Notes: generated by a model from the letters alone, not told the origin. 64,000 nucleotides of DNA from Candidatus Latescibacterota bacterium (GCA_965203175.1 OZ241867.1:5184001-5248000), one strand, 5' to 3'. Positions 37,292 through 63,999 are shown, numbered from the stretch's first letter. Program-made: numbers and translations.

Positions 37292-37329
37292 GACGAAATC
37301 TAATAAGCTAGCTGGAAATTCCGGTTGGC

Positions 37330-37371: not shown

Positions 37372-37411
37372 TGCGGTTACACCGTCCCCGTGGGGTTTTG
37401 TAAATAACCGT

Positions 37412-38707: not shown

Positions 38708-38764
38708 GGGTGCTCTCCTTTCTACAAGGTTGATGGAAGGATCGTTGTCGTCGTGTGGGAGGTT

Positions 38765-45826: not shown

Positions 45827-46006
45827 GGTGTCTCCTATGGCATCGGTCGCCTCGGCTGGCGTTTCCCCCCGCAAGCGACGCGAAGCCATAGTATATCGAA
45901 TCGCACTTCTCCCTCCAATCTGCGCTTGCCTCTTATACATGGCCCTTGTTATTGTAGAGACAACACTGCGTCGTCCACCAACCGCGCACCCATTGGAGGA
46001 AAAACC

Positions 46007-47020
46007 ATGCCCGCGCTCACCCCCAGCCAACTCGACCACTTTGCCAGCGAAGGCTACGTCGTCGTCAAAGGCGTCCTCGACCCAGTCACCACCCTCGACC
46101 CAGTCATCGACGAATACGCCACGGTCCTCGACAGCTTGGCCGACGATCTCTACGCTCAAGGTGAAATTACCTCGCGCTACGAAGAGCTCGAGTTTGGCGA
46201 CCGCTACATCCAGATCTGCGTTGAAACCGGCCGCATCCACAGCCAGTACTTCGACTTCTCACTGCCCTTCCAAAACGTCCAGCCCGACACTCCCTTCTGG
46301 GCCGGGCCAGCCGTCTTCCGCGCCTTCACCGACCCGAACCTGCTCGACGTCGTCGAGTCGCTGATTGGCCCGGAAATCTACTCCAACCCCGTCCAGCACG
46401 TGCGCATCAAACCACCCGAGCACTACCTGCCCAAAAACCAACACGGCAACCCCATCCTCGGCGCGACCCAATGGCACCAAGACCACGGCGTCGTCACCGA
46501 AGAGGCGGACGATACGCAGATGCTGACCATATGGTTCTCGCTCCAAGACACGCCCATCGAGAAAGGGCCACTGATGGTCGCGCCCGGCTCGCACAAAAGC
46601 GGACTGCTGCCGCACTGCTCCAACTACATGGACAACGCACCCCAATTCGCAGGTGCGACCCAAGTGCCGGAAAAGCTCTTTGCGGCCGAGCGGGCCATCC
46701 CCGTGCCGGTCGAGCGCGGCGACGTCATCTGCGTCCACAAGCAGACCGTCCACGGCTCCTATCCCAACGTCAGCGACGAGGTCCGCTGGAGCTTTGACCT
46801 GCGTTACAATCCCACCGACCAGCCCACCGGACGCATCGCCTTCCCCGGGTTTGTCGCGCGCAGCCGCCGCGATCCAGACAGTGAGTTGCGCGACCCAGCC
46901 GAGTGGCACCGACTGTGGCTGGAGGCGCGGGCCAAAATGGCGACCGTCAACCAAGACGGCCAGATCGACGTCCCCTTCCGCCGCGAGCAAATGGAAATGG
47001 CGCATCCCCTATGTGCCTAA
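46007..47020 (+). CDS. phytanoyl-CoA dioxygenase (PhyH) family protein
   Basis: LTPSQLDHFASEGY, QWHQD, GPL.VAPGSH, HGS.PN.S..VRWSFDLRY. GGAGG RBS. Confidence 0.88.
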   Translation: MPALTPSQLDHFASEGYVVVKGVLDPVTTLDPVIDEYATVLDSLADDLYAQGEITSRYEELEFGDRYIQICVETGRIHSQYFDFSLPFQNVQPDTPFWAGPAVFRAFTDPNLLDVVESLIGPEIYSNPVQHVRIKPPEHYLPKNQHGNPILGATQWHQDHGVVTEEADDTQMLTIWFSLQDTPIEKGPLMVAPGSHKSGLLPHCSNYMDNAPQFAGATQVPEKLFAAERAIPVPVERGDVICVHKQTVHGSYPNVSDEVRWSFDLRYNPTDQPTGRIAFPGFVARSRRDPDSELRDPAEWHRLWLEARAKMATVNQDGQIDVPFRREQMEMAHPLCA

Positions 47021-49467: not shown

Positions 49468-51432
49468 ATGCGATATGCGTTCGCTCTTGCATTAGTGCTA
49501 AGCGGTCTATCGGCGCGCTCATGGGCAGTAGATGAGTTTCGCCTCGGCGACACAGAGCCGTGGGCGACGTGGACCGGGCAACTGCGGATGATGGACGACG
49601 CTACCGACCCATCCGCACTCCAGCCGCGAGAACTCAAGCCCGGCGAAAACTTGCTCCCCCAATTGGGGCCTTGGTATCGCTGGCGCTCCCCCGGAGAATC
49701 CACGTATCGCTCGGGCGATGTCCGCATCTGGCGCGGCATCAACTACCTTCGCCCACGCGCCGAGCCACGCGACTTTATCGATGGCGACCCCGCGACCTTC
49801 TTTGCGGCGCAATCCTACTCCGAGTACAACGAATTCTACACCATTGACCTCGGCGTATCCGCGCCAGTGGATCGCTTTGCGTTCTATCCACCCGAGGGCC
49901 GCGACGCGCTCACCCAAGAGCCGTATCGCCCCAACTTCGCCTTTGCCAAATACGAACTCTCCGGCAGCCTCGATCCAGTCGGTGTCGCAAAGGAAGAAGG
50001 TACCCACTACCGGCCTTTGGACATCCTGCTAGCCAGCGTCGATCTGAACACCGAAGCCGTCGTAAATATCGAGTTCCCACTGCAATACCTGCGCTTTCTG
50101 CGCATTTACTTCTTACCAGACAGCGGCTCGTTCTACGCCAAGTTCGCCTTGGCCGAGCTAGAGGTGTCCGGCCGGGGATTCCCGCCGCAGGCCGTGTGGA
50201 CGTCGCAAGTGATCGATTTAGGGCAAACAGTCAACATTGGGCACGTGCGCTTTGGCGCGAGCAAGTGGCGGCGCGAAGGCGACCAACTCGCGGCTGCGCC
50301 CGATGCACCCACATCCGCGCAAGTAGAAATCAAAACCGGCCTAGACCCCACCCCCACTGGCTATCACGGATACGACGACATCGGCCAGCTCGTGGAAGTA
50401 ACGCAAAGCGCATACGAACGGCTCAAGCAGCGCACCTGGCCTTGGGATCCCCCGGCCGTGGGCTGGCGCGGCCCCATCATCGACGACGCGGACAACTGGA
50501 GCTTTTGGTCGCCGCCGCTGCGCCGTTCCGGCGAGTCGCCCCGAGTGCCGAGCGGCCGCTACCTGCAGTTGCGCGTGACCTTAGCAACCGAAACACTGTG
50601 GGATTTTACGCGCTTGGATTCGCTGGCGATTGCGCATTCTCCACTGCTGGCCGAGCGGGTGGTAGGCGAGATAGCTGCGGCCAGCAACCTACAGCCCATA
50701 GGCCATATCGCCGAGGTGCCAGCCGGGCAAAAGATCGAGTTGGTCTGCGACCTGCGGGCCGAGTTCACGGCGGAACAAGCCGGTTTTGACGCGGTGCGTT
50801 TAGCCCTGCCCAGCGCGGGTGCCCTGCTCGGCTTGGAGATGGGCGATCCCCTGCAGTCAGTGAGTGCCGACAGCGTAATCACCGAACCCGAGGGCCTAGC
50901 GATCTACTTGCCCGAACCCATTCACGACGGAGGCGCACAGACGCTGCGCTTGCACTTGGAAACCGTCATGTACACGGCCTCAAACACTGTGCAAGCCGAG
51001 GTGTTTTCACGCTCCGGGCAGATTCTGCCGCAGCAAGTAGAAGGAGGGGACGCCAGCGACGCCTTGGGCACGGATCAACTGCGCATGGTCGCCATCGGCC
51101 GGGCGTTGGATGAGGTGTTGGGCGCGATAGAGGTGCAGCCGACCGCGTTCACCCCGCAGGGCGACGGCATCAACGACCACGTAACGATCCAGTACAACTT
51201 GTTCCGCTTGCTAGCTCCCGCCGAGGTAGAGTTAGAAATCTACGCGCTCGACGGCCGCTCCACGTGGCGGCAAGCCCTCGGTGTACAGCTCAACGGGCAC
51301 CATCGTGCAATGTGGAATGGGCGCGACGCAGAAGACCAACTCGTCGCACCCGGGATATACGTCGTGCAAGTGCGCGCCCAAACGGACCAAGGGCAATGGA
51401 CGCAGGAACGCAGCCTCGCCGTGGTCTATTGA
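49468..51432 (+). CDS. secreted FlgD-Ig C-terminal domain protein ('type A' paralogue)
   Basis: Signal peptide, ALQPREL, IDGD, NWSFWS, FTPQGDGIND...WNGRD..PGIY...LAVVY*. Colinear with 59683-61695. Confidence 0.75.
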   Translation: MRYAFALALVLSGLSARSWAVDEFRLGDTEPWATWTGQLRMMDDATDPSALQPRELKPGENLLPQLGPWYRWRSPGESTYRSGDVRIWRGINYLRPRAEPRDFIDGDPATFFAAQSYSEYNEFYTIDLGVSAPVDRFAFYPPEGRDALTQEPYRPNFAFAKYELSGSLDPVGVAKEEGTHYRPLDILLASVDLNTEAVVNIEFPLQYLRFLRIYFLPDSGSFYAKFALAELEVSGRGFPPQAVWTSQVIDLGQTVNIGHVRFGASKWRREGDQLAAAPDAPTSAQVEIKTGLDPTPTGYHGYDDIGQLVEVTQSAYERLKQRTWPWDPPAVGWRGPIIDDADNWSFWSPPLRRSGESPRVPSGRYLQLRVTLATETLWDFTRLDSLAIAHSPLLAERVVGEIAAASNLQPIGHIAEVPAGQKIELVCDLRAEFTAEQAGFDAVRLALPSAGALLGLEMGDPLQSVSADSVITEPEGLAIYLPEPIHDGGAQTLRLHLETVMYTASNTVQAEVFSRSGQILPQQVEGGDASDALGTDQLRMVAIGRALDEVLGAIEVQPTAFTPQGDGINDHVTIQYNLFRLLAPAEVELEIYALDGRSTWRQALGVQLNGHHRAMWNGRDAEDQLVAPGIYVVQVRAQTDQGQWTQERSLAVVY

Positions 51433-53082: not shown

Positions 53083-53111
53083 AAAAAAAGCCCCTGATTA
53101 CTCAGGGGCTT
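53083..53111 (-). terminator. Rho-independent terminator downstream of tRNA-Val
   Basis: Stem AAGCCCCTGA/TCAGGGGCTT with a T7 tail on the minus strand. Confidence 0.85.
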
Positions 53112-53247: not shown

Positions 53248-54651
53248 TTACTGCTCATCAGCCGCGGTGATTTGTTCATACCGGGCAATGGCCTCCCCCG
53301 CCTCAGCGTGCAGCCCCTGTTCCCTATAAACCATAGCCAGCCCGTAATACGCATCGGCATAGTCCGGGCGAATCCGCAACGCGCGTTGGTAGCACGCCAG
53401 CGCCTCGTGCGGTTGGCCATTGAGTAGCTGGGCACTTCCCAAATTGTTGTAGGCTAGCGCGTACGCCGTGTCAATGCGGACGGCGACTTCGTACATTGCG
53501 ATGGCTTCCCCGGTATCTCCCATGCGCAAATACGCATTGCCAAGATTGTTGTACGCCGGCGCGTAATCCGGCCGCACAGCGAGACAGCTTCTCAGGGCAC
53601 TGATTGCCAAGGAGGGCATATTCAGTTTGGCGTAAATCCCGGCCAAGGCGTAATGGGCCAAGGCGTTATCCGGCTCTCGCCGCAGTCGGTCTCTGAGTTG
53701 AGCTAGATCGTCAGCATGGGGTGCCAACTCTTCAAAGCGGCTCAAGTACTGTTGAGCTTCCTCCTTTCTTCCCTGTCTGACGTAGAGCGTACCTAACTTG
53801 AAATAGGTCCGCGCCCGCACCGGATCCAAGGAGATGGCGCGCAGATAATGCGCCTCGGCGAGCGTCTCGGCGCGTCGTCGCTCCTCGGCCAACCCCAAGC
53901 CTACATGGGCTTGGGCCGCGCTCGGATCGAGGGCGAGGGCCGCGCCAAAAGCCGTTGTGGCCGCATCTACTTGGCCAGCTTGCAGCAGGGCGTAGCCTAG
54001 GCCTATCCGCGCGCTAGGCCAATCCGCTCTCAGCGCCACTGCTCGCCTAAACGCCGCGATACCTTCTTGGTACTCGCCGAGACGCTCGGCGTAGATCTGG
54101 CCTAGGGCGTAAAATGCCAAACTGTACCCCGTATCAATGCGAGTAGCCTGCCGCAGGGCTGTAATCGCCTCGTAGTACGCCTTGAGCTTGATGTAAGCCA
54201 AGCCAAGATTGTAGAACGCCCCGGCATTTTCTGGATCGAGTGCCAGCGCCTGTCGATACAAATCGCGGCTGTGGGCGTATTCCTCTTGTTCCAAGGCCAA
54301 ACTGGCCAAGCTACACAACGCACCCATGTGCTCGTCGTCCAGCGAGAGGGCACTGCGAAAATGGCTTTCGGCCTGCTCGTATAGACCCTGTTTGCAGGAG
54401 ATATTCCCCAGCCCGACCCAAGCGTCCGCAGTCATCGGATTGATGCTCAGAGCCGTGCGGTAGTGGTGGTCTGCCCCTTGGTAGTCGCGCTCGCGCAAGA
54501 GTAGATCGGCCAGTTGCCAATGGGCTTCGCCATCCTGCGGATGCCGTTCCAGCCACATTTGGTAGTCGGTCTTGGTCGTGGGGGGACGCTCGCACGCGAT
54601 CAGCATAGCCAGCGCGGTCCCCAAGAGAACAGATGGACGGGTCCTGCCCAT
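53248..54651 (-). CDS. tetratricopeptide-repeat lipoprotein
   Basis: Lipobox LIAC, about 12 TPR units (A.YNLG, AYNNLG, A....P). Confidence 0.9.
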   Translation of the reverse strand: MGRTRPSVLLGTALAMLIACERPPTTKTDYQMWLERHPQDGEAHWQLADLLLRERDYQGADHHYRTALSINPMTADAWVGLGNISCKQGLYEQAESHFRSALSLDDEHMGALCSLASLALEQEEYAHSRDLYRQALALDPENAGAFYNLGLAYIKLKAYYEAITALRQATRIDTGYSLAFYALGQIYAERLGEYQEGIAAFRRAVALRADWPSARIGLGYALLQAGQVDAATTAFGAALALDPSAAQAHVGLGLAEERRRAETLAEAHYLRAISLDPVRARTYFKLGTLYVRQGRKEEAQQYLSRFEELAPHADDLAQLRDRLRREPDNALAHYALAGIYAKLNMPSLAISALRSCLAVRPDYAPAYNNLGNAYLRMGDTGEAIAMYEVAVRIDTAYALAYNNLGSAQLLNGQPHEALACYQRALRIRPDYADAYYGLAMVYREQGLHAEAGEAIARYEQITAADEQ

Positions 54652-54658
54652 CGCCCTG

Positions 54659-57295
54659 TTAGCGCAATCCGGCGAAGATGGTTACAAACGTGAGGAAATT
54701 GGTTTCATCGCCTTGTTGCAACGCCCGGCGTTGCCAGCGCACACCAACCTTGGTGGATAGTGCGTAGCCCTGATACTCAGAGTTATTAGTAAACTGAGTG
54801 GCCAAGGTTAGGGTAGTAAAATCCTCGACAAAGGCCGGAGGCAGTGGATCGGGCTCTTGTCGCAGATTCCTAAAGACTTCCCATTCAATCCCCGATTCCG
54901 AGATGAGCTGGCCGGGTATGAGATCGTACGTCCCGATTAAGAAGAAAATCTCCGACAGCTCATTGCGTTGCAGAGCCAAAGGATCTGTGGGGACTTGGCG
55001 GGCGTACTGCTGCTTCCACTTCGGCGAAATGGTGATTCCCGCGAACGGCTCGTAGTAGTACTCAGCTCTCAGTATGACACCTAAGAAACTCTCGTTGCGC
55101 TTTTCCTCGGACTGATTCTCGCGCTGAAAATAATGGTCCCATTTGACTTTACCAGACACGTTCAGCGGCTGCAGACGATGAATAGCGAAGTCGAGATACG
55201 AAGTGTTGATCATCGTATTCTGGGCTATCAGGCGGTCCTGCACATCCTGCAAACCCCCTGCCGAAAAGGGAGACTGGACCCACTGAATCAGCGCGTCGGG
55301 AATATCGTCGCGGGCAACGCGCAAAAATTCCATGAAGCGAAACTTAAAGCCGCGCAATGGCAGGTCTTCCTGCCAAGTAAAAAGCCCATAGCTCGTCTGG
55401 TTCCGCCGGGCACTACCGATCAACCACTCGCGTAGATGCCCGACCATGAGCTTAGAACCGGGCTGCATTTCAGCGCCCACATAGAAGTTGTAACCCCGGT
55501 GGTCGCGCTTGTAGGGATAATCGGGTTCGGTATCGTTTTCGAGGCGGTCTATGACGGTGTTGTTGTTCATGTCGGTGCCGAAGAGAAATTCGGGCGGATC
55601 GACATTGTAGCGCAGAAAGGGTTCGACGTAATCGGGCTGCAAATTGTCGTTCTGGTTAAAATCGTTGACCAAGTCGTTGTTCTCGTCGAGGCCGGGGAAC
55701 ACCTCGACATCCGCGGCGCGGGTCGTCTGCTGCCCCGGCACAAAACCGCCTCCGGTAACGCGCCGCCGCCAGTCGGGGAAGCGATCTTGGTCGTCGTTGT
55801 CATCGACAAACTCATAGGTGAAGTTGAGCTCATCTTCGTAGTCGATAAAACCGCGCTGATCGGGAATGACCATAGAGGTGCCGTAGTTCGGATCCATGGA
55901 AAAGGCCTCGCCATAGGCGAACCAAGGATAGGTCAAGCGCGAGGCAGTGACGTAAAAAGCCTCGGCGCGGTCGGACGCTAGTGCCTGCCTCTTGACGATA
56001 TTCTGATTGGGAAACTTGCGGTGGTGGCGATTGACGTTGAATTCGGAGCGAAGATTGAATCCGGCCAGCTCGGAAACTTCAAACGTAAAACCCATGATTT
56101 CGTTGGCCGTCGGCAGGCCGTACTGGAAGCGGACGACCTGCTGATTGGAGCCATCGCTGATATTGCCGTTGCTCCGCTTGACCGGCAGGAAGACCGTCTC
56201 TCCCGTGAAATTGGTCTGCATATTGGAGGTTACTTCTATGCGAAAATCATTGGCCACCACCAACTCGATATCGATCTTGCGGGCTTCTTTGAAATCGCTG
56301 ATTTGGTCCTTTACGCCCGGAACGAAATCGCGTTCGACATCGTAACTAAGCGTCAGCACATCGCCGCCGTTAGCTTCGAGCAGACCCTGGCGTCGCGTTC
56401 CTCCGTCAATCGAAGGTTTTATTTCCGGATGCTCGACATCGTCGATGAAGATCCGTTCGCGGAACAGCAGCGCTCCTCCGGTATTATCTTCGGGCGAATC
56501 GTCGCTGAGGCGGACGACGATGCGGCGGACATTCTCCGCATTCAAACGCCCGCCGAGAATGCCCTTGAGGGAATTCTCTTCGACGCTCAAGCGGCTATTC
56601 CCGTGGTTGGCATTGACGTACGTCAATCCGAGTGTGGCGAAATCGCCGACTTGGGCAACTCCACGCAATCCGTACAAATTGGTGAAGACCGTCTCTCTAG
56701 CTTCGGAGATTTCGCTGTCGAGGCGTTGGACGGCCGGATTGTCAATGCGCGAAGCAATGAAGGTCAAGGCGTATTTGTCGGACTGCATATCCCACTGGAT
56801 GCCGTCGAAGAGAGGCTTCGAGAAGGTCATCGGCGTAAGCGTGGTCCGCAGTTGTTCGCCCACGGTCAGTGCAGTGTAGAATTGCCCTTTGGAAGCAGAG
56901 GATATCAGGACGCGGTTGAACCAACTATTGAAGCGGGGGTTTTTGAAAATGCTGCTGCCAAAATCGAGCGGGTGCTCCTGGCGCCAGTCGTAGATGCGCC
57001 AACCACGGGTGATATAGTTGCCATACAGGTCGTAATAGCGATCTCCTTCCAAGAAGAGATTGACGTAGCGTTGGTAGTTGTCCCGGGCGTAGTTGGTATA
57101 CTCGTAGGTCTTCCAGCCATAGAGGTAAAGCAGCGTCTGGGGCACGTACCATTTCCGCATAACCGGACTTAGGGACTCAAAATCGACGGGCGTTCCGGTT
57201 GCTTTGTACGGATTGAAGAACCCGCTTTGCAAATCGGCCTTGAGTTCCAGTGGCAAGAGGGCGAGCAAGACAAAGGACCAAATGGCTTTATTCAT
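54659..57295 (-). CDS. large exported hypothetical protein, putative outer-membrane beta-barrel with Asp/Asn-rich Ca-binding loops ('type C')
   Basis: Signal peptide, many amphipathic beta strands ending FLTFVTIFAGLR, motifs DDNDDQD, DENNDLVND, DMNNNTVID. Confidence 0.6.
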   Translation of the reverse strand: MNKAIWSFVLLALLPLELKADLQSGFFNPYKATGTPVDFESLSPVMRKWYVPQTLLYLYGWKTYEYTNYARDNYQRYVNLFLEGDRYYDLYGNYITRGWRIYDWRQEHPLDFGSSIFKNPRFNSWFNRVLISSASKGQFYTALTVGEQLRTTLTPMTFSKPLFDGIQWDMQSDKYALTFIASRIDNPAVQRLDSEISEARETVFTNLYGLRGVAQVGDFATLGLTYVNANHGNSRLSVEENSLKGILGGRLNAENVRRIVVRLSDDSPEDNTGGALLFRERIFIDDVEHPEIKPSIDGGTRRQGLLEANGGDVLTLSYDVERDFVPGVKDQISDFKEARKIDIELVVANDFRIEVTSNMQTNFTGETVFLPVKRSNGNISDGSNQQVVRFQYGLPTANEIMGFTFEVSELAGFNLRSEFNVNRHHRKFPNQNIVKRQALASDRAEAFYVTASRLTYPWFAYGEAFSMDPNYGTSMVIPDQRGFIDYEDELNFTYEFVDDNDDQDRFPDWRRRVTGGGFVPGQQTTRAADVEVFPGLDENNDLVNDFNQNDNLQPDYVEPFLRYNVDPPEFLFGTDMNNNTVIDRLENDTEPDYPYKRDHRGYNFYVGAEMQPGSKLMVGHLREWLIGSARRNQTSYGLFTWQEDLPLRGFKFRFMEFLRVARDDIPDALIQWVQSPFSAGGLQDVQDRLIAQNTMINTSYLDFAIHRLQPLNVSGKVKWDHYFQRENQSEEKRNESFLGVILRAEYYYEPFAGITISPKWKQQYARQVPTDPLALQRNELSEIFFLIGTYDLIPGQLISESGIEWEVFRNLRQEPDPLPPAFVEDFTTLTLATQFTNNSEYQGYALSTKVGVRWQRRALQQGDETNFLTFVTIFAGLR

Positions 57296-57340
57296 CGCGC
57301 TAGTTTCCCATCTCGATAGTGGCTCCGCATTGCGGCCCGA

Positions 57341-59668
57341 CTAATAGACCACATGGACGATGCGCTGTCGCCGCTCCGTTCTAGTATCGGTCTCTACCTT
57401 GGCATCCAAAATGTAGATACCAGGAGGCAACAATAAATCATTCTCATCCCGACCATCCCACACATAGTGCGTCTGGTCCACCTGTTCCGTGCTAGCAACC
57501 AGAGCGCCACTTAGATCGTAAATATCGACCTGGGGTTGAGCAGTGGTTTTTACCACCAGCAAGCGTAGCTGTAGTCTGTCGTTGATGCCGTCTCCGTTGG
57601 GCGTGACAATCGCCGGAGTCAACTCCAAGGCGCGGATGATGTGGTCCTCTTGGGCGATCTCGGGCACGAACACCGTCAAAGCCCCCTGGTCTTCCGGCTG
57701 GATCCCCTGACGGATATCGGGCTGCGTCGTAGAGCTTACCCAAGCGTCAAAAGCAGCGGCATCAGCCAACAGGCGCAGCGGCAAGTTGACTTCGATGCTG
57801 TCCCCGCGGACCTGTTCGGGCAAGTCGATTACAACCGAATCTCCTTCGGCCTCCACCTGCAACGGTTCAACCCGGCGATCCCCTATCCGCAATTGGACCT
57901 TACCTTCGAGGGGATTCGGCAAATCGAATAAGAGGCGGTTGAAACCCCGATCGGTCGGCCTAGTGCGACCTCCGAGGCGGAAGGTAAAAACCGTCAGCGA
58001 ATCGAGGGCTGCTTCACGTGGGGAGACGCTGGCGAAAACCCCGCCGCCGATGAGCGGATCGTCGAAGTCGAGGGCAATCTCGCGCAGCGTCGGTGCCACC
58101 TCGGGATCTTCGGTCTGCAGGCGCATCTCCATTTGGACGAACTTTCTCGGTGTGGGCGAGCGGAAGACTTCCCCTGACTCCTTGTAGGCCGAACTCCACG
58201 CACTCCAGTCAGCACCGGCTTTCGCCACTTTTACTTCGGGCAATTTCTGGCTAGCCGGCAGTTTGTTCCAGCGTCCTTGGGGAATTTCGCGCCCGTTCTT
58301 GTCGTAATAGAATATCTCTTCGTCTAGCGTATTGCCGGTGCGCGTGCGAATTTCTATGCGCGTCTCGGCGGTTGTCTCCGCCTCCCAGCGCATTCGGCGC
58401 AGGCTTTTGGCTCCTACCAGATCGATGAAATTCGAGGTCATCACCACCTCGGCCGGATGGCCCGCGCCGTAGAGGAAAATCTCGAACAAATGGAAGACGG
58501 TTTGCCTGTTGAGGGGAGCTTCGTGATGATAGAACAGATAGCGCACCTTGCGGGCGGGAAAGCGGAAATCAAAATTGCGGTTTCTCGTGCCCGCACTGCT
58601 CAACGTTTCATTATTGACGAAGCTAAGCAACTGGTAATCGACGGGACTCTGAAGCCGCTCTTCCCCTTGCGTGGGGATCGGCGTACCGTCCGAGGTCAAC
58701 AGTTCAAAACTGGACTGATTCCTGTACGCATTCACCCCTAGGGTGGCAAATCCCGGCGGCGGCTCCACCATCGTTAGCTGGTCAATCCAGAAGGTGGCTC
58801 CCAAATCCCATTCAAACCAATCGCCTTTATCGCGCCAGTCGAGGTCGCCCCGCGAGGTCAGGGTCCACCACGTGGCTGCGGTTCCGTCCATGATATTGGC
58901 GATGGTACGCGGATCGCGCCCAGTCCGTACGACGCCTCCTCGCTCGATGGTCCCCGGAGCAATATTGTCGCCTATGGCCTCGACCTCGACGGCTGCCAGC
59001 GCCGCATCCAGACTCTTGGCGTGGGCGACGACGCGGACGTACTGGATGGACATATACTCCAAGGTATCGCTGGTCGCCAAATGCTCGCCGGTAGCGTTGC
59101 CCAATTCCGGCGTCGCAAGGTCGTATTCTATCACCGTCTCCCAGCTAGGCTGGGTCGTGCCGCCCACCCGGTCGTAGCGGAAAACGTCCTGGCCAGTGAG
59201 GAAGGGCGTTCCTTCGGTGACGAAAACGGAAAACTCCCGCAGCGGTCGCGCCCCCTCGATATCGGGAAAGGTCAGCCGTATCTTTTTCGCTTGGACAAGA
59301 CGGCCTAAATCGATCTCGACCCACCAATCGTCGAGTGGGGCCTCTTGGCTGGGTTGCCACCAAGTGGCAGCCGCGCCATCGAGGATATGGGCGGCTTGGT
59401 CAATGTGGGTGCCCGCACCGCGAATCCCTCCCTGCACCTCTTTCCCCTTGGCGTTGAGATGGAAGAATTCGGCCGCGTTGGCAACGGCGTCTATATTGCG
59501 CCGAAAGCGTCTCAGGGCCACGCTGCCGTCTGTTGCCAATGACAACACTCCTTGCGGGAAAGTCCATTGCTGCCACTGCTCTCGGCTATTTATGAGCAGC
59601 GTTCCGGCGCTTGTTTCCCCGAGTGGGAAAAACACCAACAGTGTTAGCAAATATATCCGTCGCAACAT
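57341..59668 (-). CDS. secreted discoidin-like/FlgD-Ig C-terminal domain protein ('type B')
   Basis: ATG at 59668 after GAGG. Signal peptide, ILDG..ATWW...WVEIDLG, VTPNGDGIND...IYDLSG..WDGRD..PPGIY...VHVVY*. Confidence 0.75.
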   Translation of the reverse strand: MLRRIYLLTLLVFFPLGETSAGTLLINSREQWQQWTFPQGVLSLATDGSVALRRFRRNIDAVANAAEFFHLNAKGKEVQGGIRGAGTHIDQAAHILDGAAATWWQPSQEAPLDDWWVEIDLGRLVQAKKIRLTFPDIEGARPLREFSVFVTEGTPFLTGQDVFRYDRVGGTTQPSWETVIEYDLATPELGNATGEHLATSDTLEYMSIQYVRVVAHAKSLDAALAAVEVEAIGDNIAPGTIERGGVVRTGRDPRTIANIMDGTAATWWTLTSRGDLDWRDKGDWFEWDLGATFWIDQLTMVEPPPGFATLGVNAYRNQSSFELLTSDGTPIPTQGEERLQSPVDYQLLSFVNNETLSSAGTRNRNFDFRFPARKVRYLFYHHEAPLNRQTVFHLFEIFLYGAGHPAEVVMTSNFIDLVGAKSLRRMRWEAETTAETRIEIRTRTGNTLDEEIFYYDKNGREIPQGRWNKLPASQKLPEVKVAKAGADWSAWSSAYKESGEVFRSPTPRKFVQMEMRLQTEDPEVAPTLREIALDFDDPLIGGGVFASVSPREAALDSLTVFTFRLGGRTRPTDRGFNRLLFDLPNPLEGKVQLRIGDRRVEPLQVEAEGDSVVIDLPEQVRGDSIEVNLPLRLLADAAAFDAWVSSTTQPDIRQGIQPEDQGALTVFVPEIAQEDHIIRALELTPAIVTPNGDGINDRLQLRLLVVKTTAQPQVDIYDLSGALVASTEQVDQTHYVWDGRDENDLLLPPGIYILDAKVETDTRTERRQRIVHVVY

Positions 59669-59682
59669 GCTATCCTCGGATA

Positions 59683-61695
59683 TCAATATGCTACCGAGAC
59701 CGAATGAAATTGCTCTGATACTTCTTTGTCCGCATCTACCTTTATATGCAAAAAGTAAATGCCCGGAGGGACCAGCCCCCCTTGGTCGTCGCGCCCGTCC
59801 CATTGCTCAGTGTAAAAACCCTTGTTCAATTTCCCGCGCACCAAGGTTCTGATCTGCTGACCTGCAAGGGTATAGACACCGATCTCAGTGGCGATATTCT
59901 CCACGCCCAATAGCGAGAACGCGATGTCGAGTTCGTCGTTGATGCGGTCGCCATTGGGAGTCAGGACCGACGGTGCCAACGCAATCTCGGACAGCGCTTC
60001 TATGGAGGTTCCCGTGGCGAAAACGCGGATGTCGTCGCTATTGAGATCCGCACTCGCGTCGCCAGGGTCAATCGACTGGGGCAGATTTTCCCCCTCCAGT
60101 TCCAACACCTCGCCGAGGAAGTAGGTAGTAAAATCCAACAAGGCCGTGCGAAAGGTCAGCCGCAGATGCTCCTCGCCATCGGCGCGCACTACTTTATGCG
60201 AGGGAAAATACACGGCTAAAACCCCATCGGCGAAGCGGACGCTGTCGGGGACTACCTCCTCCAGTGGCTGGCCGATTTCCAGCTTGACGAGCTCGGCCTC
60301 AGCTACAGTATTGAGTTTGATCGCATCAAAGCCTAGCTGGCCGTCGGAGCCGAAGCTAGCCAAAAGGTCGTAAATGAATATCGTGTCCTGACCAACCGGC
60401 GCTTCGGGCACCCGACTTCCCCCCCCGGCCAACCCCACCTCGCCGACGAGGGACTCCACGAGGAGCGGCGAGTACTCAATCGCCACGGATTTCACCCGAC
60501 CAAAAATGTGGAAATCCTCAGCTGCCATGTTGAACTGAAGCTGCATATAACGCCGCGCATCCGGCGAGCGGAGCAATTGGCCGGAAAGGTCGTAGGGCGT
60601 TGACCAGAAACTCCAGTTTTGCTCGTCGAGCTTAATCGACGACTTGTCGCCGGGGCGGTCTCCCCGGACAAAGGGCGATTTCTCCAACGCCTTGTTGTAA
60701 ACCGCTTCATCTACTTGCCGTTCCGTACCTATGTCGCTGATGATGTAATACGCCTTCGGAGTATCGTCCTTGCCGGTGCGCGTTTCCAGCACCAAGTTGA
60801 TCGGTGCGTCCGGAGACGAGATGGGTTCTGGTTCGCCCGGCGTTTTGCGAAACTTTTCGAACTCCCAGAAAATGCGCCCGAAATTCACCGGCGCTCCCAA
60901 GTCGATAACCGCTGTGCGATAACTAGTCTCCGGCGCAAAACCCTCGCCGTACACCTCAATCTCGCTCAGCATGTACACCTGTGCGATCAGATTGAAGGCA
61001 ATGCGCAAAAAACGCAGAGTCTGCGCGGGAAAGCGGACATCTATAACGCGGTCGGAGTTGACGAAGGTGCGGGACAATACCTGTTCTAATGTGTGAGGTC
61101 TGTCCTCTTCGCTGAGCAGGAGAAAATCCACTGGTTCGCTGGCACCCGATATTTCATACGCCCGGGGGAAGCGCTGCTTTCTCAAGCCCCCGCCTTCGTC
61201 CAGTCCGGTAGCTGGAGGATAGAATACCACGCGGTTTATGGGAATGGGAAACGCAAAATCGAAAGTATATATATCTTCCCGGCGACCCCCACCCACTACA
61301 GACCAGCGCAGCTTGGTCACTGTAGCGAGGTCGCCATCGATGACCTGAAAGGGTGCCGTGTGGTATAGAGGCAAGATACTAGTCCAGAAACGAGGCGTTA
61401 CCCCCAGTTCAAAATCGTCCCTTTTGGGCTGTTTGCCTAGCTGCCAAGTGCTGCCCAAAATCGTGGTATATTCACCACTCTCCGTGCGAGGCCCCGCGAT
61501 GATATTCTGCTGCGGCAAGAGTTCAAGGGGCTGCAGAGCACCATTGACCGGGACCGTCTCCAAGCCGACGACTCGCTCACCTAGTTCGTCCCATGGGATC
61601 CCACCCTGTCCGAGAACCAAGGTGTGGGTCTCGGACCACAGCGGCTCAACGCCGCTCAACAACACCGCAGCAACGGCAATGAAAGTAATCTTCAT
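59683..61695 (-). CDS. secreted FlgD-Ig C-terminal domain protein ('type A')
   Basis: Signal peptide MKITFIAVAAVLL, ALQPLEL, IDGD, NWSFWS, LTPNGDRIND...WDGRD..PPGIY...VSVAY*. Confidence 0.75.
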   Translation of the reverse strand: MKITFIAVAAVLLSGVEPLWSETHTLVLGQGGIPWDELGERVVGLETVPVNGALQPLELLPQQNIIAGPRTESGEYTTILGSTWQLGKQPKRDDFELGVTPRFWTSILPLYHTAPFQVIDGDLATVTKLRWSVVGGGRREDIYTFDFAFPIPINRVVFYPPATGLDEGGGLRKQRFPRAYEISGASEPVDFLLLSEEDRPHTLEQVLSRTFVNSDRVIDVRFPAQTLRFLRIAFNLIAQVYMLSEIEVYGEGFAPETSYRTAVIDLGAPVNFGRIFWEFEKFRKTPGEPEPISSPDAPINLVLETRTGKDDTPKAYYIISDIGTERQVDEAVYNKALEKSPFVRGDRPGDKSSIKLDEQNWSFWSTPYDLSGQLLRSPDARRYMQLQFNMAAEDFHIFGRVKSVAIEYSPLLVESLVGEVGLAGGGSRVPEAPVGQDTIFIYDLLASFGSDGQLGFDAIKLNTVAEAELVKLEIGQPLEEVVPDSVRFADGVLAVYFPSHKVVRADGEEHLRLTFRTALLDFTTYFLGEVLELEGENLPQSIDPGDASADLNSDDIRVFATGTSIEALSEIALAPSVLTPNGDRINDELDIAFSLLGVENIATEIGVYTLAGQQIRTLVRGKLNKGFYTEQWDGRDDQGGLVPPGIYFLHIKVDADKEVSEQFHSVSVAY

Positions 61696-61920: not shown

Positions 61921-63477
61921 ATGACCAACGCCACGCACTCCTTACTGCTTCCCAACCAAGTCGACGAGGCCCTCGCCGCGCACTTTGCCGCGCTCGGCGT
62001 CGGCACAATCGCCGCCTACAAGCTCTGGTGCCATCGGCACGGCCTGAGCACAGCGTTAGAGAAGACGCCGCAAGAGCGGTCTGAGGAACGAGCGCTTTTC
62101 GCCGCGTTACAGCCCTCGGTAGATCCAGCAGCCAGCAAAGGGCACGATCCGCGCCGCGCCGCACTAATCGACCGGCTTTTCAACGGCGAGTTGGAGAACG
62201 AAAAGCTCAACGACCTGCTCTCGCGGCTGCGCATCGAACGCAATGCGCTAGCCAGCGACCCAGACGCCCAAAAGGCCCTGGGACGGCTGGTGCTGCACGT
62301 CGAAAAATACGGCCACTTGTTGCGGCCCATGCCCGTACTCAAGCGCCTCGGTGCCAACCGCGCCAACACCTACATCGCCGCCCTCGGGCAGCTCGCACGG
62401 CACCACCGCGACTGGCTGCGTCCGGTAGAGGCGTGGCGGCCCGATACGGCCAAGGAGCGGCTGCAGTTCCAGTCGCTGGCACGACACCTGCTTGCCCGCT
62501 ACGAGGTCCCCGCGCCCATGGACACCGCTTGGCTCCAAGGGCATACCGCGGAAGCCTACCAACAACAAGAATGGTTCAAGCACGTAGCTGGCGGTCAAAA
62601 CCTGCGCACTGCGGGTGTGCCCATGAAAGTCACCAAGCGCATGGCCCATATCTTCATGCAGATGAACCATCCACACCATACCCTGCTTCAGGCGCTGCGC
62701 ATGGCCCAGGTGGAAGCACTCGACGGCGATTCCCACGTCTCTTGGTACGTGGCCGCCACGCCGCTGGGCGACTCGTTGGAAAACGAGGACTTCTGGATCT
62801 CAGTCGTCCACTTTTATGTCAACAACTACCCCATGCTACACCGCACCTACTTCCTGCCGGTCTACGACTTCATCCGTCACCAGAAGTACCTGCCCCAGCA
62901 GATTGCGCAGCCCGACGGCACCCAAATCACCGGACCGCCGCCGCAACCCAACTTCTGCATGAAGGGCCGCAGCGCCGCCAAGCTGCTCAACCAAGTGGAT
63001 CAATGGCACGAGACGTTGTCGGGAGAAGAAGACGTGCCGCTCAAGACATGGGCGGCTACGGGCTTGGCAGGTTTTCGTCTCGAAGAATACGACGCGCAAC
63101 TCAAGTGCAACCTCGTCTGGACTATCTACGAACTCTGCACCTCGCAGCAGCTCCAAGCCGAGGGCCGAATCATGGGCCACTGTGTCTTTTCTTACACCGA
63201 CCAGTGCCTTGCTGGCGACACTTCGATCTGGTCGCTGCGGGCGCTCAACGCCGACGCCGAAGAGGCCCTCGAAAAGCGCGTCCTCACCATCGCCGTTGAC
63301 AATCGCCAGCGGGCCGTCACCCAAGCCCGAGGCAAATTCAACATGGCGCTCAATCAGCGGGAACGGCTAGAAAAGAGGCGTCGGGCGGGATCCTTATACG
63401 TGCATTTGTTGCGCGAGTCAGCGCGGATTTTGCGCTTGTGGAACAATAAGGTGGGATTGGTGCAGAAGGGGACGTAG
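61921..63477 (+). CDS. PcfJ domain-containing protein
   Basis: C-terminal WTIYEL.T...L..EG..MGHCV.SY...C..G..SIWSL...LTI.V....QARGK.N. Confidence 0.75.
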   Translation: MTNATHSLLLPNQVDEALAAHFAALGVGTIAAYKLWCHRHGLSTALEKTPQERSEERALFAALQPSVDPAASKGHDPRRAALIDRLFNGELENEKLNDLLSRLRIERNALASDPDAQKALGRLVLHVEKYGHLLRPMPVLKRLGANRANTYIAALGQLARHHRDWLRPVEAWRPDTAKERLQFQSLARHLLARYEVPAPMDTAWLQGHTAEAYQQQEWFKHVAGGQNLRTAGVPMKVTKRMAHIFMQMNHPHHTLLQALRMAQVEALDGDSHVSWYVAATPLGDSLENEDFWISVVHFYVNNYPMLHRTYFLPVYDFIRHQKYLPQQIAQPDGTQITGPPPQPNFCMKGRSAAKLLNQVDQWHETLSGEEDVPLKTWAATGLAGFRLEEYDAQLKCNLVWTIYELCTSQQLQAEGRIMGHCVFSYTDQCLAGDTSIWSLRALNADAEEALEKRVLTIAVDNRQRAVTQARGKFNMALNQRERLEKRRRAGSLYVHLLRESARILRLWNNKVGLVQKGT

Positions 63478-63507
63478 GGGCGGTGCGGAGCGCAAGCCGT
63501 CCCTACG
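63473..63507. repeat. GTAG-type REP-like palindrome between convergent genes
   Basis: CGTAGGGGCGG ... CCGTCCCTACG (1 mismatch) enclosing TGCG-GAG-CGCA. Confidence 0.55.
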
Positions 63508-63519
63508 AACGAGGCGCGA

Positions 63520-63999
63520 TTAATGAGTGCCTATTGAAAGCAGCGATTTGATCTGTCCCCACGAGGTCTTGGCCACAGCCGTCGGCTCCCCGCTGGTATA
63601 AGACGCGATGTCCATCACGTAAATCTCAGCGTTGCCGTCGCGGTCGGAGGTGAAGGCGATGGAACGACCGTCCGGAGACCACGAAGGAGACCCATCCGAG
63701 CCATTGTGATAGGTCAGGCGACGCACGTTGCCTCCATTCGCATCCATTACGTAAATCTCAGAGTCACCGGCGCGGTCGGAGGTAAAAGCGATGGTCTGGC
63801 CATCTGGAGACCACGAAGGAGACCCGTCATAGCTACTGGCATCGGTCAGGTTGCGTCGGTTTTTTCCATTCGCATCCATCACGTAAATATCATGGTCATG
63901 GTGAGAATGAAAGGCGATGGAGCGACCATTCGGAGACCACGAAGGATCTAGGTCTTGGCCCCAGCCGCCGCTCAGATTCCGCAGGTTTTCCCCAGACAA
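63520..63999 (-). CDS. TolB-like PD40-repeat protein, C-terminal part (5' truncated), ending in TAVAKTSWGQIKS tag
   Basis: Three PSWSP(D/N)G..IAF.S.....IYVMD repeats. Confidence 0.88.
   Translation of the reverse strand: MSGENLRNLSGGWGQDLDPSWSPNGRSIAFHSHHDHDIYVMDANGKNRRNLTDASSYDGSPSWSPDGQTIAFTSDRAGDSEIYVMDANGGNVRRLTYHNGSDGSPSWSPDGRSIAFTSDRDGNAEIYVMDIASYTSGEPTAVAKTSWGQIKSLLSIGTH

Follow-up and report, generated by a model that had tools for sequence, protein, structure and literature searches.

A recurrent cell-envelope gene cassette of Latescibacterota joins lectin-like proteins with type B-like sorting domains to a predicted very large outer-membrane barrel

Background

What is the role of four tightly packed genes that all carry export signals, two of which encode proteins ending in a type B-like sorting domain? 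The question is raised by a 64,000-nucleotide stretch of a Candidatus Latescibacterota bacterium genome (GCA_965203175.1 OZ241867.1:5184001-5248000), referred to here as the window. The original prediction took these genes for an undescribed cell-envelope system, comprising two secreted proteins with a C-terminal sorting domain (CTD), a calcium-binding beta-barrel and a TPR lipoprotein, and serving either to display barrel-anchored cargo or as a capture and uptake module analogous to SusC/D. One published account describes type B cargo of type IX secretion (T9SS) as binding PorP-like barrels and staying on the cell surface, the adhesin SprB being cargo of this kind (PMC9143113). Here we report that the four genes belong to a modular cell-envelope unit specific to part of the phylum Latescibacterota, of which we found no description in the literature searched.

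Results and discussion

The locus and its limits

Open reading frames and their translations bear out the proposed arrangement of four co-oriented minus-strand genes in the order A-B-C-D, separated by gaps of 14, 45 and 7 bp. Gene A (59683..61695) encodes 670 aa, gene B (57341..59668) 775 aa, gene C (54659..57295) 878 aa and gene D (53248..54651) 467 aa. The longest reading frames of A and B reach further upstream, from a GTG at 61854 and an ATG at 59803, respectively; translation is taken here from the Met residues at the head of hydrophobic, signal-like N-termini (MKITFIAVAAVLLSG... in A and MLRRIYLLTLLVFFPLG... in B). The N-terminus of C is MNKAIWSFVLLALLPLELKA. On the same strand, 3' of D and ahead of a sulfatase gene, a consensus scan found a terminator-like hairpin with a 10-bp stem and a T-run (53088..53111), probably marking the end of the operon.

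Upstream of A, an insertion (61921..63999) divides the cassette from its upstream half. It holds a PcfJ-like gene on the plus strand (61921-63477) and a PD40 beta-propeller gene on the minus strand, which occupies 63520 onward and is truncated by the end of the window. The gene map places a further A gene (genome coordinates 5249467-5251383) and a lipoprotein gene, U2 (5251368-5252093), just beyond the window, and in relatives the gap matching the insertion is absent or 2.3-2.8 kb long.

Two related secreted proteins with lectin-like architecture

A and B are homologous, with 27% identity over 492 columns (BLASTP, E 4e-31), and the alignment contains the motifs IDL, RTG, WSxWS, SP..R..Q, GF, TPNGDxIND, WDGRD, PPGIY and a terminal VxY, in agreement with the distant kinship first proposed for them. 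In A, a signal peptide is followed by an N-terminal region without a family match, a middle module of the A/B type and the CTD (residues about 575-670; 59683..59973, minus strand; motif TPNGDRIND), a T9SS type B-like sorting domain of Ig fold. Along with its signal peptide, B has tandem discoidin/CBM32-like and Ig-like domains and a CTD (residues about 685-775; 57341..57616, minus strand; motif TPNGDGIND).

Profile searches upheld part of the expected domain content. Pfam CHU_C (PF13585, cut-off 27) passes in both proteins, with 30.5 bits in A (575-658) and 38.4 bits in B (685-764), and FlgD_ig (cut-off 27) passes in A at 28.7 bits and fails in B at 25.1 bits. B also matches F5_F8_type_C_2 (PF22633) with 32.8 bits against a cut-off of 27.8, PF00754 staying under its cut-off of 28.2 at 23.5 bits. 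Neither protein reaches the NCBIfam type B model TIGR04131 (cut-off 35; A 14.8 bits, B 30.1 bits) or the type A model TIGR04183 (cut-off 23; 16.8 and 19.6 bits). All Pfam and NCBIfam matches in A and B are confined to the terminal CTD and the discoidin parts, so that neither protein matches a characterised family over its full length.

The AlphaFold2 (AF2) model of B is all-beta with a pLDDT of 88. Its best Foldseek neighbours are fucolectin (3cqo, E 7e-9), ZmpB CBM32-1/2 pairs (7jfs/7jnf) and neuropilin b1b2 (2qqi, TMt 0.51), pointing to tandem discoidin/CBM32-like lectin domains with Ig-like domains and a predicted capacity for sugar binding. The suggestion that no enzymatic domain is present holds for B, where neither the AF2 model nor Foldseek revealed one. 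Both A and B are Sec-exported multidomain proteins of lectin-like, non-enzymatic character that end in a sorting domain resembling the T9SS type B signal.

C is predicted to be a very large outer-membrane barrel

Neither Pfam nor NCBIfam matches C at E<=0.1. Its AF2 model (pLDDT 70.4, pTM 0.67) contains about 23 strands of 10-17 residues, and Foldseek returned 54 matches at E<=0.001; nearly all of the 48 listed are outer-membrane barrels, an exception among those listed being one low-probability IFT-A chain. The best neighbours are SlpA (8ae1, E 1.6e-8), MtrB (6r2q), LptD (5iv9) and FimD (3rfz). Structural comparison with outer-membrane barrels gave VIA Z scores up to 14; across the Foldseek and VIA comparisons, TM-scores are only 0.17-0.26 and rmsd 7-30 A. 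With barrel closure judged from the model summaries, C is thus modelled, as originally proposed, as a membrane barrel: a very large one of roughly 24 strands, following a signal peptide and belonging to a family without annotation.

Two parts of C stand out. A beta-rich insert domain (residues about 240-380; 56156..56578, minus strand) lies between barrel strands in the DSSP string, at pLDDT 80-93. An Asp/Asn-rich segment (residues 495-600; 55496..55813, minus strand) has 30 Asp or Asn among its 106 residues, against 13.7% over the whole of C, confirming the acidic region noted earlier; many invariant alignment columns fall within it, and pLDDT is below 50 at residues 499-590. Scanned alone, neither part has a Pfam match. 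From its composition, the acidic segment is a candidate calcium-binding extracellular loop.

In size the barrel resembles those of FimD/PapC, LptD-LptE, MtrB-MtrA and Deinococcus SlpA, and the cassette likewise includes a lipoprotein (U2) and a chaperone-type gene; unlike in those systems, no sequence family match is found, and the likeness extends only to that of a large outer-membrane barrel. FimD/PapC ushers are 24-strand barrels whose plug lies between early barrel strands. C could be viewed as an usher- or translocon-like channel by which its own A/B proteins are exported or built into a surface fibre, with the peptidyl-prolyl isomerase (PPIase) linked to the cassette as periplasmic chaperone and the CTD targeting C rather than SprA. 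Some of the longest structural alignments are to ushers (9fxs_D, Z 13.3, rmsd 8.2, 344 residues aligned; Foldseek E 2e-6), the modelled position of the insert domain between early strands is reminiscent of the usher plug, double-parvulin PPIase paralogs cluster near C (32 of 37 within 10 kb), and a single SprA would otherwise have to serve about 200 A/B and 48 other CTD proteins. Yet FimD comparisons (Z 10.8-13.3, rmsd 5.8-8.2 over 324-344 residues) are tied with unrelated barrels, porins, BamA/TamA/FhaC, LptD and SlpA all lying at rmsd 7-10, which indicates generic barrel similarity, and Pfam finds no Usher, POTRA or secretin match in C. Many A/B genes also have no adjacent C, and for large multidomain proteins with a recognisable T9SS CTD, in a genome with SprA, PorU and a PorV-like gene, export by the T9SS is the simpler explanation. 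We regard an export pore as improbable.

C is not a SusC-type TonB-dependent transporter by family membership: it matches neither Plug (PF07715) nor TonB_dep_Rec_b-barrel (PF00593). A true TonB-dependent receptor in the window (38765-41242) is detected normally. The 32 Plug matches in the genome all lie away from C genes, as judged by eye from their coordinates.

D and the wider cassette

The lipobox LIAC and matches to TPR families (up to 197 bits among the best 25 of 30 Pfam families) identify D as the predicted TPR lipoprotein, with about 9 TPR units; comparison with named TPR lipoproteins gave only sub-threshold NCBIfam matches. D is not SusD/RagB, being a canonical TPR protein, and the sole PF07980 match of the genome lies elsewhere, at 3767002-3767358.

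Across copies the cassette runs from lipoprotein U2 through two A genes and B to C, followed by a PPIase or FG-GAP gene and, after that, TPR. The four-gene system is real, though it is not a one-off, being one of about 40 copies, and it has further conserved parts: U2, the double-parvulin PPIase, an FG-GAP protein, a secreted protein of ~300 aa (U3) and a DUF6785/6784 membrane protein with 11 hydrophobic segments (two overlapping windows counted once). Of 64 D-type paralogs, 39 have a C gene within 10 kb. For DUF6785/6784 the figure is 23 of 53, where 15.2% of the genome lies within that distance, an enrichment of about three-fold.

Amplification and conservation

Among 5,105 non-overlapping crude ORFs of the 6.58-Mb genome are 62 C, 135 A-type (129-135 across counts) and 67 B-type genes, about 200 A/B genes in all. 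Together the C and A/B paralogs occupy 625,881 nt, or 9.5% of the genome, which carries some 40 copies of the cassette. Moving upstream from C on the same strand, one meets A or B as the first gene outside the C family in 57 of 62 cases. Among 66 loci from other Latescibacterota genomes, 7 without upstream DNA were left out, and an A/B ORF ends <=500 bp upstream of C in 57 of the 59 usable loci. Adjacency of A/B to C is thus conserved within and between genomes, and because the order recurs so consistently in both sets, the arrangement exceeds chance.

Of 81 Latescibacterota genomes sampled, 45 carry the C family. The A/B middle module occurs in 31 of the 81, all 31 of them C-positive, and in none of the 36 C-negative genomes, in a sample dominated by two families (f1 and f2) and comprising few independent lineages. 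We conclude that genes A to D are co-inherited and co-amplified.

Cargo genes also occur apart from C: for 47 of 129 A-type and 25 of 67 B-type genes the nearest C is over 10 kb away, so that much cargo has no adjacent barrel. Two examples are in the window. An A-type paralog (49468..51432, plus strand, 654 aa, 290.9 bits to A) has a CTD and no adjacent C gene, its CHU_C (26.7 bits) and FlgD_ig (26.3 bits) scores falling just under the cut-off of 27. A B-type paralog (43529..46240, minus strand, 903 aa, 266.4 bits to B) has discoidin and CHU_C domains (F5_F8_type_C 30.5 bits, CHU_C 29.0 bits).

Type IX secretion and the relation of C to PorP-like barrels

The check for T9SS genes gave a mixed outcome. 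SprA_N is over its cut-off in a 2133-aa ORF (82 bits), as is PorU (632 bits), and a PorV-like gene adjoins PorU at 147 bits, below the cut-off of 250. With Bacteroidota models, GldK gave only generic FGE-sulfatase-type matches in the genome (<=84 bits against a cut-off of 350) and GldM gave none, the latter model matching none of the control genomes either. Of 202 A/B ORFs, 129 have the motif PNGD..ND within their last 115 residues, compared with 0 of 4,903 other ORFs. A profile built from the A/B CTD matches 48 other ORFs at lower scores (median 60 vs 106 bits), and these form a separate cargo class.

The cassette shares several features with SprB-SprF of Flavobacterium johnsoniae and PG1035-PorP-PorE of Porphyromonas gingivalis: a CHU_C/TIGR04131-like CTD with TPNGDxxND on the cargo, an outer-membrane barrel gene directly 3' of the cargo gene (here after a 45-bp gap behind B), a TPR-containing lipoprotein nearby and, in variant cassettes of this and other genomes, a small PorP/PorV-like barrel. 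In the known systems, sprF sits directly downstream of sprB, PorE contains TPRs and PorP/SprF proteins are roughly 300 aa long. Unlike PorP/SprF, C has 878 aa, about 24 strands and no PF11751 similarity at E<=0.1, and is not a member of that family. Unlike type B cargo systems, moreover, the cassette adds U2, PPIase, FG-GAP, U3 and DUF6785/6784 proteins, has multiplied to 62 barrel and about 200 cargo genes, has A/B proteins below the TIGR04131 cut-off and GldK and GldM undetected by Bacteroidota models, and resides in a host outside Bacteroidota.

Could C nevertheless be this lineage's enlarged PorP/SprF anchor and nothing more, a one-to-one functional replacement? Its place directly behind type B-like cargo, as of sprF behind sprB, would fit. 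There is no PorP/SprF-like gene at the window locus, and PF11751 has no match in the whole genome or in 14 other genomes of the same family, all of which have C; the sister family f2 shows the opposite, as 21 of its 24 genomes have PF11751 and none of the 24 has C. This complementary pattern rests essentially on one two-family contrast, however, and 4 of the 81 genomes have both. In three of these four the PorP-like gene is within the cassette, directly upstream of C in the orders B-PorP-like-C and A-PorP-like-C-C-C, and downstream after U2 in C-U2-PorP-like. Queries with PorP-like proteins of the lineage further recovered 11 PorV/PorP-like small-barrel ORFs in the present genome at E<=0.01 (8 at E<1e-5), one of which sits between an A-type gene and a divergent C. 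Given also that C is three times longer than PorP/SprF, we consider a plain replacement very improbable.

The small barrels between cargo and C tie A and B to the type B cargo paradigm and at the same time weaken the reading of C as a PorP/SprF-type anchor, a role that may belong to the small barrel instead. Because some cassettes carry both, C is not simply a PorP substitute. The idea of barrel-anchored cargo thus gains from the T9SS core genes and the conserved adjacency, and loses ground where it casts C as the anchor.

Surface capture, import or adhesion

We propose that A and B cross the outer membrane via the single SprA-type T9SS of the genome and would remain on the surface, associated with the barrel of the adjoining gene, as type B cargo does with PorP/SprF-type barrels. 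The long conserved acidic loops and insert domain of C may face outward as a docking or ligand platform, and D, with the PPIase of other copies, may help assembly on the periplasmic side. A given cassette would in that case capture a particular glycan or other polymer at the surface, and C would possibly be a gated entry route towards DUF6785/6784, ABC or MFS permeases. We infer the physical A/B-C complex, the anchoring and the uptake alike; surface capture by A/B in association with a barrel has in our estimate a little under an even chance, and the import step through C is less likely.

The comparison with SusC/SusD loci rests on many paralogous loci per genome, a large barrel combined with surface proteins of predicted sugar-binding type, a helical-repeat lipoprotein gene just 3' of the barrel gene, and sugar catabolic, transporter, ECF sigma and two-component genes in some flanks. 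FG-GAP/UnbV_ASPIC proteins occur beside some SusC/D pairs, as they do near the cassette. Unlike SusC/SusD, the binding proteins here are T9SS cargo and not lipoproteins, and the flanks contain few glycoside hydrolases (one GH5, one GH2-N domain and one GH108 among 115 proteins). Of the 115 scanned non-recurrent flank proteins, 31 belong to sugar or sugar-acid catabolic or solute-transport families, including MR_MLE, UxuA, DHDPS, SBP_bac_1, BPD_transp_1, MFS and SSF, a count without a genome-wide baseline. In the scanned flanks ExbB/ExbD adjoin a single cassette, a divergent one. Sulfatases show no enrichment near C (7 of 49 within 10 kb vs 15.2% expected), and at the window locus the terminator-like hairpin lies between D and the sulfatase gene. 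This genome has more C genes (62) than Plug-domain TonB receptors (31 over cut-off) or SusD (1).

Pfam detects no Plug, TonB-dependent-receptor or other transporter signature in C, which speaks against capture and uptake.

The same observation would suit a role in adhesion or surface coating alone, in which A and B are variable lectin-like adhesins or a protective variable coat directed at host matrix, particles or other cells, and C and D form an anchoring platform without import. A string of discoidin and Ig-like domains, as in B, is typical of adhesins, CAZymes are few in the flanks, and SprB, the type B cargo introduced above, is an adhesin on a PorP-like barrel. The sequencing runs containing the window locus are labelled sponge metagenome, and a sponge-microbiome study describes sponge-associated Latescibacterota as rich in eukaryote-like repeat proteins (PMC8163846). 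A host-specific role is made unlikely, however, by the record titles of other metagenome-assembled genomes with the C family, which indicate groundwater and other sources than sponges. A barrel of 878 aa and about 24 strands far exceeds the needs of an anchor, and adhesion leaves unexplained both the enrichment of DUF6785/6784 near C and the sugar-acid and transporter genes of the flanks, the latter being the count that lacks a baseline. We therefore judge adhesion alone unlikely, though less so than an export pore.

Conclusions

If the import step through C is real, the cassette would be functionally analogous to SusC/D, though its proteins are unrelated to them. It is possible, if on balance doubtful, that part of the Latescibacterota evolved its own polymer capture-and-import apparatus independently of SusC/D, in which lectin arrays delivered by the T9SS dock on a gated barrel of ~24 strands. 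Servicing this apparatus would be the task of dedicated SurA-like PPIases, of a lipoprotein and of polytopic inner-membrane permeases of a new class (DUF6785/6784), and some 40 cassettes per genome would each be tuned to a different substrate. Such a system would mean that the "PUL" principle was invented a second time from unrelated parts, and would be the first uptake system whose binding proteins are supplied by the T9SS.

Organization of the locus

The genome that holds the window is a single contig of 6.58 Mb with a G+C content near 0.6. The original prediction had described four co-oriented genes with gaps of 14, 45 and 7 bp, and the ORF coordinates bear this out. All four lie on the minus strand: A at 59683-61695 (taken to start at the Met opening MKITFIAVAAVLLSG; the longest ORF runs from a GTG at 61854), B at 57341-59668 (start MLRRIYLLTLLVFFPLG; longest ORF from 59803), C at 54659-57295 (start MNKAIWSFVLLALLPLELKA) and D at 53248-54651. 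The product of D was correctly recognized as a TPR lipoprotein, having the lipobox LIAC and about nine TPR units; against the named TPR lipoproteins of NCBIfam (PilW, Tgl, GltE, PorE and others) every match was below its cut-off. A terminator-like hairpin at 53088-53111, a 10-bp stem plus T-run, lies between D and a sulfatase gene.

The full order of this cassette is U2-A-[two PD40 genes and one PcfJ-like gene]-A-B-C-D, where U2 encodes a lipoprotein; U2 and the first A are situated just past the end of the window. The segment separating the two A genes (61921-63999 and beyond; genome positions 5245921-5249355) carries two PD40 beta-propeller genes and, on the plus strand, the PcfJ-like gene (PF14284, 41 bits). 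In close relatives the gap between the A genes is absent (L049) or measures 2.3-2.8 kb (L038, L041, L043, L045, L047, L051), and the interruption thus differs from strain to strain. A separate minus-strand cluster, apart from A-D, occupies 34511-41242 and consists of a TonB-dependent receptor with CarboxypepD_reg and Plug domains (38765-41242), a DUF4856 protein (37412-38707), a 474-aa ORF without assignment (35867-37291) and a flavin amine oxidase (34511-35848).

Contigs 90-95% identical to parts of A, B, C and D were found in metatranscriptomes (four runs, three studies), one of them, 1,923 nt long, covering the D/C junction. These contigs are assembled, come from relatives and may stem from libraries containing DNA, and are not counted here as proof of expression or co-transcription; gene parts without such cover carry no meaning.

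A and B are lectin-like candidates with a type B-like C-terminal domain

A and B had been proposed to be distant relatives with common motifs, and their alignment (BLASTP, 27% identity over 492 columns, E 4e-31) contains every one of the motifs quoted. The proposal of a type B T9SS C-terminal domain (CTD) held for the Pfam model CHU_C, which both proteins pass (A 30.5 bits, B 38.4 bits; cut-off 27), and failed for the stricter NCBIfam model TIGR04131 (A 14.8 bits, B 30.1 bits; cut-off 35), so that Pfam alone recognizes the CTD as type B-like. FlgD_ig was matched above its cut-off of 27 by A (28.7 bits) and below it by B (25.1 bits), and B also matched F5_F8_type_C_2 (32.8 bits; cut-off 27.8).

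The AlphaFold2 model of B (40 sequences; pLDDT 88, pTM 0.73) is all-beta and multidomain, with strings of Ig-like domains following discoidin-type pairs. Its best structural matches are tandem discoidin/F-lectin/CBM32 pairs, among them fucolectin 3cqo (E 7e-9), ZmpB CBM32-1/2 and neuropilin b1b2 (TMt about 0.5). For B, the expectation that no enzymatic domain would be present agrees with the model and structure search, in which no enzyme fold appeared; the predicted fold is lectin-like and non-enzymatic.

A CTD profile built from 202 A/B tails matched these 202 ORFs plus 48 others, with medians of 106 versus 60 bits, and the motif PNGD..ND occurred in the last 115 residues of 129 of the 202 A/B ORFs versus none of 4,903 other ORFs. 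Several of the 48, examined in the flanks of the cassettes, bear FlgD_ig-type CTDs on FG-GAP or cytochrome-c-peroxidase proteins. This split in motif and profile indicates two classes of cargo in the genome, a general one and a type B-like one specific to A/B; the A/B family alone carries the type B-like CTD. An array of four tandem FG-GAP proteins of ~700 aa ending in FlgD_ig-type CTDs (39-47 bits), at genome positions 2453759-2462717 (L121/L122), belongs to the general T9SS cargo class, distinct from that of A and B.

C is predicted to be a very large outer-membrane barrel

The 878-aa C protein matched no Pfam or NCBIfam family at E<=0.1, and scanning its N-terminal segment, its insert domain (residues about 240-380) and its Asp/Asn-rich acidic segment (residues 495-600) singly at E<=5 gave nothing usable. 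In the ESM Atlas it falls among 30 unnamed Latescibacterota/Gemmatimonadota clusters; the closest named cluster, DUF6029 (score 0.89), gives a lead only. An exhaustive profile-free search of 1.84 billion representatives returned 703 clusters (50% identity) of relatives, making the C family modest and lineage-restricted.

The AlphaFold2 model of C (34 sequences; pLDDT 70.4, pTM 0.67) has about 23 long strands and a confident beta-rich insert at about 240-380. Confidence is low at 13-84 and 499-590, both among the most conserved parts of the alignment; the acidic segment overlapping the latter holds 30 D/N per 106 residues. Foldseek matches are almost exclusively to large outer-membrane barrels (SlpA 8ae1, MtrB 6r2q, LptD 5iv9, FimD 3rfz; E 1.6e-8 to 2e-6, TM 0.17-0.26), and two VIA-align runs gave a plateau (Z 11-14, rmsd 7-10) on which porins, FhaC/TamA/BamA, ushers, LptD and SlpA appear alike. 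As originally predicted, then, the modelled strands and structure matches point to an outer-membrane beta-barrel, of roughly 24 strands and with no known barrel family favoured. An assignment of C as usher-like, LptD-like or SlpA-like was rejected, the three structure searches having favoured no barrel family.

That C might be an usher-like pore dedicated to export or assembly would be in keeping with the usher matches; equally placed matches to other barrel families do not single this role out, and we regard it as quite improbable. The outer-membrane barrel C-terminus is usually periplasmic, and together with the alternation of short and long connections, read from the DSSP string alone, this suggests that the insert domain and acidic segment of C are extracellular loops. 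Modelling C (878 aa) and the B CTD (residues 676-775) as a complex yielded no answer (score 0.00), which counts neither for nor against binding.

The A, B and C families are amplified together

Searching the genome with C gave 84 matching pieces from 68 candidates. Among 19,158 crude six-frame ORFs of >= 90 aa, phmmer (E<=1e-5) retrieved 62 with C as query, 202 with A, 169 with B and 74 with D; being homologues, A and B retrieve partly the same ORFs. When ORFs were chosen greedily so as not to overlap, which left 5,105 spanning 93% of the genome, best-hit labels went to A 135 times, to B 67, to C 62 and to D 71. A, B and C together comprise 625,881 nt, or 9.5% of the genome.

The 62 C genes fall into 46 uninterrupted A/B/C runs, typically ordered A-A-B-C, A-B-A-C-C or B-C...A-A-C in the direction of transcription. 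When tandem C copies are skipped, the first gene upstream of C is a co-oriented A (40) or B (17) in 57 of the 62 cases, so that the pairing proposed from one locus recurs throughout the genome.

Further conserved parts of the cassette

Taking four genes either side of each of the 46 runs, and leaving out A, B and C, gave 296 genes that were clustered by BLASTP, with one representative scanned per recurrent cluster. The recurrent groups are P, lipoprotein-like proteins of ~560 aa with a pair of parvulin PPIase domains (cluster of 33); D-type TPR proteins (33); U3, ~300-aa secreted proteins without family (31); F, FG-GAP/UnbV_ASPIC proteins (20); M, ~660-aa DUF6785+DUF6784 proteins (18); U2, ~260-aa lipoproteins without family (13); and S, sulfatases (6). 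Pfam/NCBIfam scans of U2 and U3 gave nothing usable.

Against a baseline of 15.2% of genome DNA lying within 10 kb of a C gene, the paralogs found within that distance were 32/37 for P, 14/17 for U2, 24/30 for U3, 82/129 for A, 42/67 for B, 39/64 for D, 30/61 for F and 23/53 for M. Sulfatases are not enriched (7/49, chance level) and, with the hairpin separating D from its sulfatase neighbour, were rejected as a cassette part; the sulfatase gene adjoining D (51463-53034) is probably a chance neighbour. Several FGE-sulfatase genes, present besides the 49 sulfatase paralogs, are likewise not enriched near cassettes.

P has 37 paralogs genome-wide (for example L022, genome positions 124411-126096), and it is unusual for such a large SurA/PpiD-like chaperone gene family to be tied to one barrel family. 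M has 53 (for example L025, 89218-91203; DUF6785 429 bits, DUF6784 105 bits), and its 11 hydrophobic segments mark it as a polytopic inner-membrane protein. It has no NCBIfam family, a sequence search of the PDB gave a chance-level match alone and hence no solved relative, and our literature search found no publication on DUF6785.

The cassette is conserved across Latescibacterota

Among homologues that carry a name, those closest to C and B derive from MAGs with the label Candidatus Latescibacteria or Latescibacterota, in some cases Gemmatimonadetes and in one Desulfobacterales, and are annotated as "hypothetical protein", "discoidin domain-containing protein" or [quoted passage not shown]. 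The locus is also present in runs labelled sponge metagenome. A search with the C alignment found at least 714 stretches, at least 662 of them encoding relatives; the best 80 were kept and represent 66 loci, which stem almost without exception from MAGs labelled Latescibacterota.

The order U2-A-A-B-C-(F or P)-D recurs across related loci, down to about 45-50% C identity. Among these best 80 matches, an A/B ORF ends within 500 bp upstream of C on the same strand in 57 of 59 usable loci (seven of the 66 had less than 1.5 kb upstream and were left out), many of them orthologues from close relatives and thus not independent; the A/B-C adjacency is conserved, as predicted. In one exception (L048, OZ247580.1) a 96% identical C has no A/B ORF of >= 120 aa in the 9 kb upstream, possibly through frameshifts in the assembly or a deletion; in the other (L094) a DUF6785-type gene stands between a B fragment and C.

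Across 81 genomes drawn from the phylum, the C family occurs in 45, including all 14 of the window's family and none of two sister families (0/24 and 0/6). The middle module of A/B, queried as a single sequence (B residues 400-680), was found in 31 of the 81, all of them C-positive, and in none of the 36 C-negative genomes. In the 14 C-positive genomes that lack an A/B match, C itself is matched only distantly, and any A/B genes there may be too divergent for a single-sequence query. We regard the family structure of the A, B and C genes, their co-inheritance and their amplification as established.

Relation to T9SS machinery and PorP/SprF-like barrels

The T9SS components named with the original prediction (sprA, porV, gldKLMN) were recovered in part. 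The genome encodes one SprA (SprA_N 82 bits, 2133-aa ORF) and the PorU sortase (632 bits), adjoined by a PorV-like gene (147 bits, under the cut-off of 250). The GldK model gave generic FGE-sulfatase-type matches alone, and the GldM model had no match in this genome, nor in the control genomes.

In Bacteroidota, type B cargo binds PorP-like barrels, as described for PG1035-PorP-PorE and SprB-SprF (PMC9143113). The corresponding model PF11751 had no match in this genome or in 14 other genomes of its family, and matched weakly (20-28 bits) in 25 of the 81 genomes, chiefly in the sister family lacking C (21/24). The two distributions look complementary, but this is essentially one contrast between two families; it would fit C as a plain replacement of PorP. 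PorP-like proteins and C nonetheless occur together in four genomes, three of which carry the PorP-like gene within a cassette: B-PorP-like(306 aa)-C, A-PorP-like(346 aa)-C-C-C and C-U2-PorP-like(315 aa). Searched with these proteins, the genome of the window yields 11 ORFs for PorV/PorP-like small barrels (E<=0.01; eight of them at E<1e-5). One (286 aa) sits between an A-type gene and a divergent C at 2.80 Mb, and another follows a U2 gene. The PorP-like barrels inside cassettes tie the cassette family firmly to the type B cargo paradigm and suggest that C is an additional component; plain replacement of PorP is very unlikely.

One divergent cassette at 2.80 Mb (L123, genome positions 2792466-2807279) reads C(1005 aa)-U2-x-A(552)-PorP/PorV-like(286)-C(978)-TPR-like(1090), then ExbB and ExbD, and is the only site among the flank genes scanned at which this TonB-system motor stands beside C.

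Flanking genes and a model of cassette function

Among 115 non-recurrent flank proteins from 40 regions (out of 50 regions holding 130 such genes), 31 belong to sugar/sugar-acid catabolic or solute-transport families. The former include MR_MLE, UxuA, DHDPS, HpcH, FGGY, GFO_IDH, aldo-keto reductase, xylose-isomerase-like TIM and 3-keto-disaccharide hydrolase, the latter SBP_bac_1, BPD_transp_1, MFS, SSF and SorC-type Sugar-bind. The flanks also contain five PhyH, three FGE-sulfatase and three GDSL matches, two ECF-type sigma factors and a single histidine kinase/response regulator pair; glycoside hydrolases are rarely represented (a GH5 with CBM4_9, a GH2 N-terminal domain and a GH108, once each). 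These counts stand without a genome-wide baseline and may be read as flavour, not proof. TonB-dependent receptors whose Plug domain scores above cut-off number 31 in the genome, which has only one SusD-like gene; the 62 C-type barrels are thus twice as numerous as classical active-transport barrels.

We tentatively favour a model in which each cassette is a capture unit for one particular ligand. A and B would be exported through the T9SS and stay on the cell surface, associated with the barrel of the adjoining gene, whose outward-facing acidic loops and insert domain would form a platform; D and P would work on the periplasmic side, P perhaps as a dedicated barrel chaperone. C may in addition be an entry route to M or to ABC or MFS permeases, a step that, taken by itself, we consider rather doubtful. 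The lectin-like, non-enzymatic fold predicted for B would equally suit a cassette serving adhesion or a coat only; set beside the transport families of the flanks, we judge that reading unlikely. What probability remains falls to anything else, for example gliding-type moving adhesins.

Novelty and significance

Our full-text literature search found no published description of these loci; main-text passages of sponge-MAG papers make no mention of the genes, which the supplementary tables of those papers may list generically. Among the papers retrieved for Latescibacterota and polysaccharide utilization loci, none deals with loci of that kind, judging from titles and abstracts. That type B cargo goes with a cognate barrel is an already known logic; what is new is that the very large barrels form a new family, that several more components lack an assignment, and that amplification reaches an unusual degree.

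The Latescibacterota, all of them uncultured, occur widely in sediments, groundwater and sponges and are believed to break down complex polymers; we know of no account of how their cell surface interacts with substrates. At about 9.5% of a 6.6-Mb genome, the cassette must play a central part in how the organism lives. In pairing T9SS type B-like cargo with a giant barrel, it carries the logic known from SprB/SprF over into a new phylum and a new protein family, and for structural biologists the C family would be a new class of outer-membrane barrel of very large size. Should the barrel import the ligands of the lectins, the cassettes would be a convergent counterpart of SusC/D, which is used to read substrate preferences from metagenomes, and could then serve the same purpose.
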